Source: Candidatus Omnitrophota bacterium
Lineage (GTDB): Bacteria > Omnitrophota > Gorgyraeia > Gygaellales > Profunditerraquicolaceae
Length of the DNA stretch: 64,000 nt
Assembly: GCA_028715785.1 (NCBI GenBank)
Contig: JAQURC010000002.1
Location: 140,322-204,321, forward strand
Direction: 5' to 3'
Shown here: in pieces, positions 52,437 to 58,166 of the stretch
Numbering within the stretch: the stretch's first letter is position 1
How the letters are laid out: each line of letters opens with the position of its first letter
Notes under the pieces: model-generated
Seen by the model: the letters and a program-made list of their open reading frames with translations, nothing else
Databases searched by the model: none
Told to the model about the DNA's origin: nothing
Program-made: the position numbers and the translations under genes

Positions 52437-53768
52437 ATGGCATTATCGGGTTTAGATATTTATAAATTACTGCCTAAGACAAACTGCCGTCAGTGCGGGT
52501 TTGCTACCTGCCTGGCTTTTGCCATGCAGCTGGCTAAAAAAGCGGTCGCAATCGAAAAATGCCCTTTTATTTCGCCGGAAGCTAAAATGATTTTAGAGGC
52601 GCAAGCCCAACCCCCGATTAAACCAATTATTCTAGGTAATAATAAATCTAACTTCGAGATCGGCAATGAAACGGTAATGTTCCGGCATGAGGAAAAATTC
52701 CGTAATCCGGCAGGGGTCGGTTTTATTATCGACGATAACCTAAGCGACGCGGAAATAAAAGCAAGGCTTAAAGAAATCAACCAGTTAAAATTTGAACGGG
52801 TAGGCCAGCTGCTTGAAGTTAATCTCCTAGCTTTAAAACAAAATAAGGATGCCAAAAGGTTTCTTGAGGCAACTAAACTGGTCTTGGATAATACTCCTTT
52901 GCCGCTAATGCTGATAAGCAGCGAATTGGCATCTTTAAAACAGGCAGCAGGAATTGCCAAAGACCGCAAACCTCTGCTTTATTGTGCCACCAAAAATAAT
53001 TTCGCCCAAATCGGCTCGATTGCCAAAGAGTTTGGCCTGCCGCTGGTCGTATCTGCGCCGGATTTTGACAGTTTGTCCGAAATTACTAAAGAACTTAATG
53101 CTTTAGGGGTAAATAACTTGATTTTAGATACCGGAAAAAAATCCGTGACCGATAAAATCTGGGATTTAACGCAACTACGGCGCCAGGCGCTTAAAAAATC
53201 AAACCGGTCATTGGGGTATCCCGGTTTGGTTATCGTAGATAAAACCGATCCTTATGAAGAAGCTATGGAGGCAACCGCTTATATCGCTAAATACGCCGGG
53301 ATTGTTTTGATCAAGGGCACTGCTTCCTGGGAAATTATCTCTATTTTGACTTTAAGGCAGAATATTTATACCGATCCTCAAAAACCCCTGCAAATCGAAT
53401 CCAAGCTTTATCCGATAGGGCAAGTCAACCCGAATTCCCCGGTTTTAATTACCACTAATTTTTCTTTAAGTTATTTTACTGTCTTAGGAGAAGTGGAGGC
53501 CAGCAAAATACCCGCTTATATCTTAAGCGTGGACACTCAAGGAATGTCTGTGCTTACCGCCTGGGCCGCGGAAAAATTTAACGCCGAATGTATCACCAAA
53601 TCATTGGGCGATCACGGTGTTAAAAACGCGATCAAACATAAAAATTTGATTATTCCCGGGTATGTGGCGGTAATCAGCGGCGAACTTGCGGACAAGTCGG
53701 GTTTCCAAATAATCGTCGGCCCTAAAGAAGCGGCGGGGATCCCCGCGTTTCTAAAAAACCTGAACTGA
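52437..53768 (+). CDS. acsC: Corrinoid iron-sulfur protein large subunit (acetyl-CoA decarbonylase/synthase gamma)
   Basis: N-terminus LSGLDIYKLLPKTNCRQCGFATCLAFAM carries the [4Fe-4S] Cx2Cx4C motif. TIM-barrel and corrinoid-binding domains collinear with Moorella AcsC. Confidence 0.8.
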   Translation: MALSGLDIYKLLPKTNCRQCGFATCLAFAMQLAKKAVAIEKCPFISPEAKMILEAQAQPPIKPIILGNNKSNFEIGNETVMFRHEEKFRNPAGVGFIIDDNLSDAEIKARLKEINQLKFERVGQLLEVNLLALKQNKDAKRFLEATKLVLDNTPLPLMLISSELASLKQAAGIAKDRKPLLYCATKNNFAQIGSIAKEFGLPLVVSAPDFDSLSEITKELNALGVNNLILDTGKKSVTDKIWDLTQLRRQALKKSNRSLGYPGLVIVDKTDPYEEAMEATAYIAKYAGIVLIKGTASWEIISILTLRQNIYTDPQKPLQIESKLYPIGQVNPNSPVLITTNFSLSYFTVLGEVEASKIPAYILSVDTQGMSVLTAWAAEKFNAECITKSLGDHGVKNAIKHKNLIIPGYVAVISGELADKSGFQIIVGPKEAAGIPAFLKNLN

Positions 53769-55693
53769 TGCAAAAATTCAAAGTTACATTCTTACCGGAT
53801 AATAAAACTGTTTCTGTCGATAAAGACTCGACCATACTTTCGGCGGCAATCTCGGCAGGAGTCTATATTAATTCTACCTGCGGCGGGGACGGGATTTGCG
53901 GAAAATGTAAGGTTGTCGTAGAAGGCCGGGTAACCAGCCAGCCAAACGGAATAATTACTCCCGAAGAACGCAAGAATAATATATATTTAGCCTGCCTGAC
54001 AAATGTTCACGCAGACCTGAAGGTTCGGGTTCCGGATAGTTCGCGGCTTAATTTTGACAAGCTTACTCCCGAAGAATTGGAGGAACGTTTAAGCGGCCTT
54101 TATTCAAAAACAGAGGAGATCTCCCCGGTAAAAGCAAAATTTGAAAACGGGGTTTTTAAACATTCCCCATTTACCACAAAATTATATCTTGAGCTGCCCA
54201 AGCCGACGATCAATGACAGTATCAGCGATTTGGAAAGGCTGTACCGGGCCTTGCGGAATTTCGGAGGATTCCCCGTAATCCAAACAGGATTATTCAATAT
54301 CCGCCAGCTTGGTGAATTATTGCGCGATTATGAATGGAAGGTCACCGTAACACTGGGCAGGCGCAATGACATGGTCGAGATAGTGCTCATCGAACCCGCA
54401 GACACAACAGGCAAAAATTTCGGGCTTTGTTTTGATATCGGCACGACGACAATTTCCGGCCAGCTGGTAAATCTAAATTCAAAAAAAGTCCTGGGGACAA
54501 AAGCCGCTTATAATCAACAGTCTGCTTTCGGCAGTGACGTAATTACGCGCATAATTCACGCGGCAAAAAGCGACGGCTTAGAGCAGCTGCATAATGCCGT
54601 TTGCGACACGATGAACCAGATCATCAAAGAGCTGGTTTTGGAGCATAAGGTGGATTTAAATACGGTTAACTGCATTGTCTGTTCGGGGAACACTACAATG
54701 ATCCATTTACTTTTAAATATGGATCCGTCCCATATCCGTAAGGAACCGTATGTTCCAACGGCAAATTTCCTGCCGGTGGTGCGCGCCGCAGAAGCCGGAA
54801 TAAATATTAATCCCAGGGGGCTGTTAAGTTGCGTTCCGGGAGTTTCCAGTTATGTCGGCGGGGATACTACCGCCGGGGTTTTATCCAGCGGATTATACCA
54901 GAAAGAAAAACCCTGCATATTAATTGACATCGGCACAAACGGGGAAATTGTTTTAGGCAATCAAGAATTCCTGGTTGCCTGCAGCGCATCCGCCGGCCCG
55001 GCTTTTGAAGGCAGCGGGCTAACCTGCGGGATGCGGGCAAGCAGCGGGGCAATCCAAAAAATACATATAGATAAAAAAGATTTCAGCCTCAGGTATTCCG
55101 TGATCCAGGATAAAAAACCCCGCGGAATTTGCGGATCAGGCTATATCGACCTGCTTAGTGAAATGTTAGAAGCAGGAATTATTGATAAGGGCGGAAAAAT
55201 CAAAGCCCAAAACCACCGGCGTATCCGCAAAACCGATCTTGGTTATGAATTTGTGGTTTGTTTTAAAGAAGAAACCGCCAGCGGTTCAGATATCGTAATT
55301 AATGAGGCCGATATTGAAAACCTTAAACGCTCCAAGGGAGCGATATATTCTGCCGCCTCGATTTTAGTTAAACATTTGGGTTTGGAATTTACGGCAATCG
55401 AAAAATTTTATATTGCCGGAGGGTTTGGAACTTACCTGGACATTGAAAAGGCAATCCGGATCGGGTTATTGCCTGATCTGGAGCGCTCAAAGTTTGTTTT
55501 TATCGGGAATAGCTCCCTGGCAGGGGCAAGAGAGATACTTTTATCGACCCAGGCGATGGAAATGGCGGATAACCTTGCTGCAAAAATCACTTATTTTGAA
55601 TTGTCGGTTGAACCCGGATATATGGAGGAATACAGCCAGGCTTTATTTTTTCCGCATACGGATTTGACCAAATTCCCGACGGTGAAATTTTAA
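53768..55693 (+). CDS. Reductive activator of corrinoid Fe-S protein (RACo; 2Fe-2S ferredoxin + ASKHA ATPase)
   Basis: N-terminal plant-type 2Fe-2S ferredoxin (CGGDGICGKCKV) followed by a DUF4445/ASKHA ATPase body. Confidence 0.7.
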   Translation: MQKFKVTFLPDNKTVSVDKDSTILSAAISAGVYINSTCGGDGICGKCKVVVEGRVTSQPNGIITPEERKNNIYLACLTNVHADLKVRVPDSSRLNFDKLTPEELEERLSGLYSKTEEISPVKAKFENGVFKHSPFTTKLYLELPKPTINDSISDLERLYRALRNFGGFPVIQTGLFNIRQLGELLRDYEWKVTVTLGRRNDMVEIVLIEPADTTGKNFGLCFDIGTTTISGQLVNLNSKKVLGTKAAYNQQSAFGSDVITRIIHAAKSDGLEQLHNAVCDTMNQIIKELVLEHKVDLNTVNCIVCSGNTTMIHLLLNMDPSHIRKEPYVPTANFLPVVRAAEAGININPRGLLSCVPGVSSYVGGDTTAGVLSSGLYQKEKPCILIDIGTNGEIVLGNQEFLVACSASAGPAFEGSGLTCGMRASSGAIQKIHIDKKDFSLRYSVIQDKKPRGICGSGYIDLLSEMLEAGIIDKGGKIKAQNHRRIRKTDLGYEFVVCFKEETASGSDIVINEADIENLKRSKGAIYSAASILVKHLGLEFTAIEKFYIAGGFGTYLDIEKAIRIGLLPDLERSKFVFIGNSSLAGAREILLSTQAMEMADNLAAKITYFELSVEPGYMEEYSQALFFPHTDLTKFPTVKF

Positions 55694-57366: not shown

Positions 57367-57368
57367 AT

Positions 57369-58166
57369 ATGTTTATTATCGGAGAATTGATTAACGGGAT
57401 GTATCCGGAAATTGCTTTGGCAATCAAAGAGCGCGATAAGAAAATGATTCAAAAATACGCGCTCCAGCAGATTGACTGCGGCGCCGATGCCCTTGATGTC
57501 AACTGCGGCACGGCTTCGGCTAAACCATTGCTGGATATGCCCTGGCTGGTTGAAACAATCCAAGAGGTAACCAATAAACCGCTTAGCCTTGATTCCAGTA
57601 AGCCTGAAGCCATTAAAGAAGGCTTGAAAGCCGCCAGGAATAAAACAATTATCAATTCTACTACGGCGGATCCGGAAAAACTGGAGATACTTGTTCCTTT
57701 AGCCAAACAGTATAATTCCAAGTTAATCGGGATTACCATCAGCGCAAAAGGGATCCCGCAGAATAAAGACCAGCGCGTGGAATTAGCGGCGGCAATCGTC
57801 GCCTACTGCCAGGAAAACGGATTTCCCATCGGAGATCTTTATTTAGACCCGATAGTCTTGCCGATTAATGTCGCCCAGGGACAGATGATTGATATTTTAG
57901 AGTCTATCCGCGAATTCAAGATAATCTCTGAGCCAAGCCCCAAGACCGTTATCGGCCTAAGCAATGTTTCTCAGGGCACGCGTATTCATAATACTCACAG
58001 CCTGATCAACCGCACATTTTTAACAATGGCAGTTGCGTATGGCTTAGATTCTGCTATACTTGATCCTACAGATAAAGAGTTGATGGACAGCTTGATTACC
58101 GCGGAACTTATTTTGAATAAAAATATTTACTGCGCTTCGTATTTAGAGGCCTACAGAAAAAAATAA
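57369..58166 (+). CDS. acsE: Methyltetrahydrofolate:corrinoid/iron-sulfur protein methyltransferase (pterin-binding)
   Basis: IIGELINGM...MINSTTADPEK...GLSNVSQG...INRTFL are collinear with Moorella AcsE/MeTr. Confidence 0.8.
   Translation: MFIIGELINGMYPEIALAIKERDKKMIQKYALQQIDCGADALDVNCGTASAKPLLDMPWLVETIQEVTNKPLSLDSSKPEAIKEGLKAARNKTIINSTTADPEKLEILVPLAKQYNSKLIGITISAKGIPQNKDQRVELAAAIVAYCQENGFPIGDLYLDPIVLPINVAQGQMIDILESIREFKIISEPSPKTVIGLSNVSQGTRIHNTHSLINRTFLTMAVAYGLDSAILDPTDKELMDSLITAELILNKNIYCASYLEAYRKK

Follow-up and report, generated by a model that had tools for sequence, protein, structure and literature searches.

In the acs operon of Moorella thermoacetica, which we take to be ordered acsA-acsB-acsC-orf7/RACo-acsF-acsD-acsE, the genes of the corrinoid iron-sulfur protein (CFeSP) and its partners directly follow acsA and acsB. 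Dehalococcoides mccartyi, in contrast, presumably has an incomplete Wood-Ljungdahl pathway, with CFeSP genes that lack a neighbouring carbon monoxide dehydrogenase (CODH) gene, and we know of no CODH in its genome. A single cluster holding the five CODH/acetyl-CoA synthase (ACS) subunit genes is given as the norm in the passage of PMC12827605 that cites Adam et al. 2018. Here we analyse a 64,000-nucleotide stretch of contig JAQURC010000002.1 (the window), from a Candidatus Omnitrophota bacterium of the family Profunditerraquicolaceae, in which the five-gene module acsC-RACo-cooC-acsD-acsE occupies positions 52437–58166. The one-cluster norm does not hold in the clade to which the window belongs, where acsB and acsC have become separated. 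The explanation that we favour, at a probability of roughly 85%, is an ordinary Wood-Ljungdahl pathway whose genes are distributed between two sites, acsA and acsB being at the other one.

The lineage has been treated before. Profunditerraquicolaceae are described as encoding the Wood-Ljungdahl pathway, with acsABCDE present and CooS variable; formate dehydrogenase is listed as missing throughout the phylum, and the pathway has been proposed to take in formate plus CO or CO2, or to run in reverse (Seymour et al. 2023, PMC10066038). Lineage and gene content are thus those of the system considered here. The parts of that paper drawn on here give presence and absence only, and a two-locus organisation was not found described in them.

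Compared with Moorella and Carboxydothermus hydrogenoformans, the window encodes the same five proteins as full-length homologues (E values of 1e-76 to 2e-158, and 2.5e-18 for CooC) in the same internal order, with the [4Fe-4S] cysteines, the CxC motif and the pterin-site stretches conserved. It differs in that the module has no acsA/acsB upstream; instead, larB stands before it and a tRNA gene after it, in a block of housekeeping genes. The likeness to Dehalococcoides raises the question of the direction in which the pathway runs, although here the lineage has a CODH gene beside acsB at a second locus.

Integrity of the five-gene module

All open reading frames (ORFs) in the window that encode 150 aa or more were scanned against Pfam. 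The five plus-strand ORFs of the module (Table 1) follow one another with overlaps or gaps of 0–16 nt, and the assignments made in a preliminary description of this DNA, drawn up from the sequence without database searches, stand for all five: the coordinates are exact, and profile matches and sequence matches to solved structures agree. AcsC scores 552.7 bits against NF003195 (cutoff 306; residues 1–441), contains PF03599 (319 bits) and PF04060 (50 bits), and aligns over residues 1–441 with the CFeSP large subunit of C. hydrogenoformans (2H9A/2YCL chain A) at 2.8e-133. In this alignment the [4Fe-4S] cysteines of 2H9A chain A are matched by its residues Cys17, Cys20, Cys25 and Cys42. Corrinoid binding by AcsC is predicted from homology, for the C-terminal domain only. 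A protein in the NCBI database that is 100% identical, from a 286,868-bp contig of a Candidatus Omnitrophica bacterium, carries the annotation “acetyl-CoA decarbonylase/synthase complex subunit gamma”.

The small subunit AcsD is supported by NF003376 (388.9 bits, cutoff 280) and by the Moorella CFeSP small subunit 4DJD_D (1.8e-91). AcsE, the methyltetrahydrofolate (methyl-H4folate):CFeSP methyltransferase (MeTr), scores 298.5 bits against NF005719, the pterin-binding TIM barrel MeTr model (cutoff 259), and stays below the cutoff of 370 for the narrower model NF040758, at 169.6 bits. It matches 2YCI at 1e-76 and the Moorella MeTr 2E7F/4DJD at 2.3e-73, and in the alignment the pterin-site stretches LDS, INST, LDP, GLSNVSQ and INR are identical or nearly so.

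RACo, the ATP-dependent reductive activator of corrinoid protein, has the layout of a [2Fe-2S] ferredoxin domain, linker, middle domain and ASKHA domain, with PF00111, PF17650, PF17651 and PF14574 all above their gathering thresholds and a match to 3ZYY at 2e-158 over residues 1–639. Against the AcsV model NF040756 it scores 677.8 bits over the full length, under the curated cutoff of 800, and it is a full-length but more divergent member of AcsV. The ATPase encoded between RACo and acsD contains PF01656 and PF13614, and its top solved relative is CooC1 (3KJE), at only 2.5e-18; both the deviant Walker A P-loop GKGGTGKT and a Cys-x-Cys metal motif (CYC) have aligned counterparts in 3KJE. None of the curated CooC/AcsF models reached its cutoff with this protein, and we therefore base the label AcsF on the motif and on the position of the gene. 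The protein may thus serve the maturation of ACS, as AcsF does, or that of CODH, as CooC does, or may be another MinD-like ATPase.

None of the five genes is truncated, and their catalytic and cluster motifs are preserved. Between the window and the related assembly JAQUQW01, each of the five shows a synonymous divergence (dS) of about 0.37–0.53 and a ratio of nonsynonymous to synonymous divergence (dN/dS) of 0.07–0.16, from which it follows that they are kept by purifying selection. We therefore confirm that they form a real, intact Wood-Ljungdahl corrinoid methyl-transfer module.

Two conserved loci, probably in place of one cluster

The preliminary description had noted that acsA and acsB are absent within 8 kb of the module, and the absence proves wider than that. 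The Pfam scan found no CODH, ACS, fhs, folD or metF in the whole 64-kb window, and tblastn searches of the window with AcsB and CODH of Omnitrophota, which cover 52 kb upstream and 5.8 kb downstream of the module, gave no match.

In other Omnitrophota the textbook, undivided arrangement is found, namely in the complete chromosome CP070780.1 (L049; loci are cited by our own labels) and in L051, L057, L075, L081 and L082. The supercluster of L081 and L082 reads trmD-rplS-rnhB-fhs-fchA-folD-(metV)-metF-acsA-cooF-NAD(P)H oxidoreductase (nox)-acsB, and continues from acsB with acsC-RACo-cooC-acsD-acsE-panB. The gene order in the window is thus exactly that of the distal five genes of the complete supercluster. 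The canonical clusters (L049, L057, L075, L081 and L082) share with the window the phylum, the proteins (AcsC is 51–56% identical) and the order of these last five genes; they differ in having fhs-fchA-folD-metF-acsA-cooF-nox-acsB directly upstream of acsC, and panB after acsE. Relative to them, the break in the window clade falls between acsB and acsC.

Two further features of these clusters may be recorded. Besides acsE, canonical clusters include another AcsE-like pterin-binding gene, a divergent one with 37–39% identity to AcsE of the window (L082 20038–20835, L089 16488–17273, L141 15550–16332, L057 17620–18396); it lies a few genes 3' of acsE, after panB and panE where these were identified (L082). 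AcsB of other Omnitrophota may contain a LAGLIDADG intein in its C-terminal domain, as in L049 (6161–9991), L051 (3–3779) and several database matches.

The arrangement seen in the window is itself conserved. The nearest AcsC loci in species-representative genomes belong almost entirely to metagenome-assembled genomes (MAGs) of Candidatus Omnitrophota. The closest relative used here has its locus on JAQUQW010000001.1 (649 kb; GCA_028716245.1), with AcsC 92% identical and the same gene order over 21 kb. When the window genes were compared by tblastn with 80 fetched loci, a block running gatC-gatA-gatB-S41 protease-deacetylase-tsaD-mgtC-bactofilin/helix-turn-helix (HTH)-HTH-larB and then acsC-RACo-cooC-acsD-acsE-tRNA-...-tilS-ftsH recurred in about 50 species of Omnitrophota, with AcsC 52–92% identical to that of the window. 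No acsA or acsB was found by tblastn within the flanks of about 10 kb of these roughly 50 split-type loci. In the part of Seymour et al. 2023 used here (PMC10066038, Supplementary Table 1), one of them (AM-2014-D7_bin-608, L009; AcsC 75%) is placed in Velamenicoccia; Gygaellales; Profunditerraquicolaceae (GTDB Koll11; GIF10; UBA6249). The same paper assigns UBA6249 (L069; AcsC 68%) to that family too, and GWF2_43_52 (L042) to its sister family UBA12090.

A candidate for the missing half was found as a second type of locus. A metagenome scan with AcsB of Omnitrophota returned 80 contigs, more than 25 of which show fhs-fchA-folD-metF-acsA-cooF-nox-acsB followed by conserved genes other than acsC. 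When one such AcsB served as query in a protein search, at least 120 matches at 82–100% identity were obtained, and among the matches listed with a source name most are labelled Omnitrophota or Omnitrophica. The full layout is trmD-rplS-rnhB-yraN-fhs-fchA-folD-(metV)-metF-acsA-cooF-nox-acsB, and from acsB onwards TPR-polA-glgA-coaE-rho-rpmE-prfA-prmC-aroA; it occurs in the NCBI assemblies LJUU01, JBDRAV01, JAQTTO01, JAUYDQ01 and JBGGHK01 as well as in contigs from JGI and ENA. Wherever the sequence of an acsB-half locus reaches far enough upstream, a Prismane-family CODH gene, cooF and the NAD(P)H oxidoreductase gene directly precede acsB. Like the split-type loci L009 and L069, LJUU01 (SM23_72) belongs to Profunditerraquicolaceae according to the entries of Seymour et al. 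2023 used here (PMC10066038). The upstream context trmD-rplS-rnhB-fhs is common to canonical and acsB-half loci, and because it equals that of the complete superclusters, we conclude that the acsB half has kept its ancestral position and that relocation affected the acsC-acsE module.

Neighbour-joining trees link the two halves. In the tree of 115 AcsC sequences, all 49 that have larB upstream group in one clade, which also encloses L031, L039 and L045, three rearranged loci where another gene precedes acsC. Its sisters are Omnitrophota sequences of the canonical type. The AcsB tree shows a similar pattern: apart from L056, L060, L123 and L130, the AcsB sequences that lack a following acsC make up a single clade, to which all acsB-TPR-polA loci belong, and its sister groups are the same canonical Omnitrophota as in the AcsC tree. 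The two trees are congruent, and the matching positions of these clades make one lineage with two loci far likelier than separate AcsC-only and AcsB-only lineages. The GC contents of the two sets of half-loci match, at 0.436 ± 0.044 and 0.429 ± 0.030, which we count as weaker support. The preliminary description had left two readings side by side, a split cluster and a CFeSP that serves a different methyl acceptor. The first is favoured by the second locus in the same family and order, by the agreement of the trees and by the retention of the putative nickel-insertion ATPase, while the second found no positive support. The outcome that it had named as speaking against anything unusual, an acsAB pair elsewhere in a merely split pathway, was encountered at the level of the lineage, in the acsB-half loci of the same family and order.

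A single ancestral event in Gygaellales best accounts for this distribution. The module acsC-RACo-cooC-acsD-acsE would have been relocated once out of an fhs...acsA-cooF-nox-acsB-acsC...acsE supercluster and would have landed inside a housekeeping block, between larB and a tRNA gene, while fhs-fchA-folD-metF-acsA-cooF-nox-acsB would have remained at the original trmD-rplS-rnhB site. The biochemistry of the module would be that of its Moorella and Carboxydothermus homologues. AcsE would transfer the methyl group of methyl-H4folate to Co(I) of the corrinoid in the AcsC/AcsD heterodimer, and the methylated CFeSP would pass it to the A-cluster nickel of ACS (AcsB). RACo would rescue oxidised Co(II) by re-reducing it with ATP and an electron, and the CooC/AcsF-type ATPase may load nickel into the partner enzyme.

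Several observations weigh against a pathway divided in this way. The window genome was read within the 64 kb only, and no single assembly was seen to carry both halves; the acsA/acsB half is thus predicted for the window's own genome from its relatives. Ten AcsB look-ups, matched by whole-genome shotgun prefix, led to assemblies that all lie outside the AcsC set, and no contig was common to the two AcsB match lists and the AcsC list among the best 120 matches of each, which is weak evidence. Nor is the module uniformly intact among split-type relatives. By our searches, cooC is undetectable in eight loci (L003, L013, L018, L027, L034, L044, L045 and L069), RACo lacks its N-terminal approximately 205 residues, that is, the ferredoxin domain and linker, in four (L001, L003, L008 and L045), and acsE was undetected at its place in one locus only (L006). 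Finally, some species of Profunditerraquicolaceae are listed without AcsA and CooS/F in the entries of Seymour et al. 2023 used here (PMC10066038); because MAGs are incomplete, such absences are weak evidence. One candidate for a direct link was rejected: the AcsB protein MDP2938195 and the AcsC protein MDP2939003, whose accessions are 808 apart, are not from one MAG, as they belong to JAUYDQ01 and JAUYCX01 respectively.

Alternative explanations

The window may instead come from a genome without CODH/ACS, the loss being confined to it or shared by a subset of the clade, in which AcsE, CFeSP and RACo act as a stand-alone donor that passes methyl groups from methyl-H4folate through the corrinoid to another acceptor, for which a methylcobamide-dependent methionine synthase or another methyltransferase would be a candidate. 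This would explain how the module became uncoupled from acsAB while selection persisted, and if the genome indeed had no ACS it would point to an unknown CFeSP partner. The lack of acsA and acsB from the flanks of the module and the failure to obtain a same-genome link to acsB agree with it, and the purifying selection on the five genes holds whatever their partner. The Pfam scans of the window, however, revealed no acceptor of the MtaA/MtbA, MetE-like or HgcB-like kind, and a CooC/AcsF-type nickel ATPase that keeps its CxC motif would be pointless without a nickel enzyme. Furthermore, the acsA-acsB half-loci in the same family and order, which lack acsCDE, would be left without any CFeSP. We regard a stand-alone donor as improbable.

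An equally improbable variant keeps ACS and dispenses with CODH. With acsB present and acsA/cooS absent, ACS would use external CO, or would cleave acetyl-CoA in the reverse direction and so feed methyl-H4folate; such reverse cleavage was reportedly proposed for Dehalococcoides mccartyi by Zhuang and colleagues in 2014. The species listed without AcsA and CooS/F, together with the formate dehydrogenase missing throughout, would fit a carbonyl branch truncated in this manner (PMC10066038, in the parts used here). Against it stand the CODH, cooF and oxidoreductase genes found upstream of acsB wherever an acsB-half locus is long enough; the reported absences come from incomplete MAGs.

A third reading, that the pathway was lost and the module is now decaying, as the relatives without cooC, acsE or part of RACo might suggest, is hardly credible given five full-length ORFs with intact motifs and conservation over about 50 species, and we reject the pseudogene reading on the dN/dS of 0.07–0.16 relative to a relative at a dS of about 0.4–0.5.

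Surroundings of the module

The neighbours named in the preliminary description, larB, HTH genes, a tRNA and a lytic transglycosylase, are all borne out, by the match to 7MJ0, by Pfam and by ARAGORN. In the window larB, which ends 2 nt before acsC, lies outside the pathway and marks a conserved insertion context. Upstream of the module stand two HTH_17 genes, one of them fused to a bactofilin, and an SLT transglycosylase gene lies downstream of the tRNA (both by Pfam). A tRNA(CAT) gene directly 3' of acsE was also found, with Rfam, in L013 (15959), L023 (16318), L025 (15725), L042 (16310) and L050 (16152); as it is conserved after acsE across the clade, the module sits between larB and the tRNA gene. 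The gene tilS, whose product modifies tRNA-Ile2(CAU), lies 2 kb downstream of the CAT-anticodon tRNA.

Table 1. Features of the window discussed in the text (positions are those of the 64,000-nucleotide stretch)
Feature	Coordinates	Strand	Length	Remarks
acsC, CFeSP large subunit (CdhE/gamma)	52437-53768	+	443 aa	
RACo/acsV, ATP-dependent reductive activator of corrinoid protein	53768-55693	+	641 aa	
cooC/acsF-type P-loop ATPase gene	55694-56446	+	250 aa	MinD/ParA fold; putative nickel-insertion accessory
acsD, CFeSP small subunit (CdhD/delta)	56431-57366	+	311 aa	
acsE, methyl-H4folate:CFeSP methyltransferase (MeTr)	57369-58166	+	265 aa	
larB, pyridinium-3,5-biscarboxylic acid mononucleotide synthase	51763-52434	+		2e-66 to LarB 7MJ0
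tRNA(CAT)	58174-58250	+		ARAGORN, Rfam; 8 nt 3' of acsE
UDP-glucose/GDP-mannose dehydrogenase, second of two in tandem	13641-16379	+	912 aa	LAGLIDADG homing endonuclease intein
ORF without Pfam family	37940-40717	+	925 aa	weak TPR match only
ORF without Pfam family	40811-44014	-	1067 aa	
GGDEF diguanylate cyclase	6473-7756			
GGDEF diguanylate cyclase	7744-8739			
GGDEF diguanylate cyclase	23125-24948			
RNase P RNA, bacterial class A	26324-26664	+		167.5 bits

The interval between larB and acsC varies among relatives. Most other split-type loci have a gene of about 140 aa of the FmdE family (PF02663, 3e-18) between the two, for example in L013 at 9518–10001, with similar gaps in L014–L050, and the deep-branching L048 and L058 have a larC/Ni_insertion gene (PF01969, 2e-100) in that gap, at about 8850–10000. 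The relocated module is thus bordered by genes for the nickel-pincer cofactor, larB and larC. Since synteny extends over the entire gatC-ftsH block, this proximity does not imply that they are linked in function.

The remainder of the window is made up of housekeeping genes: dnaKJ, dnaG, rpoD, ruvCA, aromatic amino acid genes, lepA, gatCAB, tsaD, tilS, ftsH and the gene of an LptD-family outer-membrane protein. With Rfam, neither the window nor any of six related loci gave a cobalamin or tetrahydrofolate riboswitch, and a promoter and terminator scan of 50000–59200 gave no usable signal. Apart from the module, the dehydrogenase gene with an intein and two long ORFs without a Pfam family may be mentioned (Table 1), the minus-strand one of which is kept at the same position in the relative L179. 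The presence of three diguanylate cyclase genes is notable for a small, streamlined genome; a GAF domain occurs in one of them, and PAS together with an HD-GYP-type HD_5 domain in another.

Significance of a probably divided cluster

What is encoded here is already known: each protein is a typical member of its family, the pathway has been published for Profunditerraquicolaceae, and AcsC of the window is annotated at NCBI. The separation of acsC from acsB throughout the clade adds a modest observation on synteny, not a new system, and it has little importance beyond annotation. There it does matter, since Wood-Ljungdahl calls made from one neighbourhood miss half of the genes when these sit at two conserved loci, and the lineage affected is abundant in groundwater and sediment. 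The window clade also offers a clean example of a single, datable break in an otherwise strongly clustered CODH/ACS operon, and the acsB/acsC break may serve as a synteny marker for the order Gygaellales.

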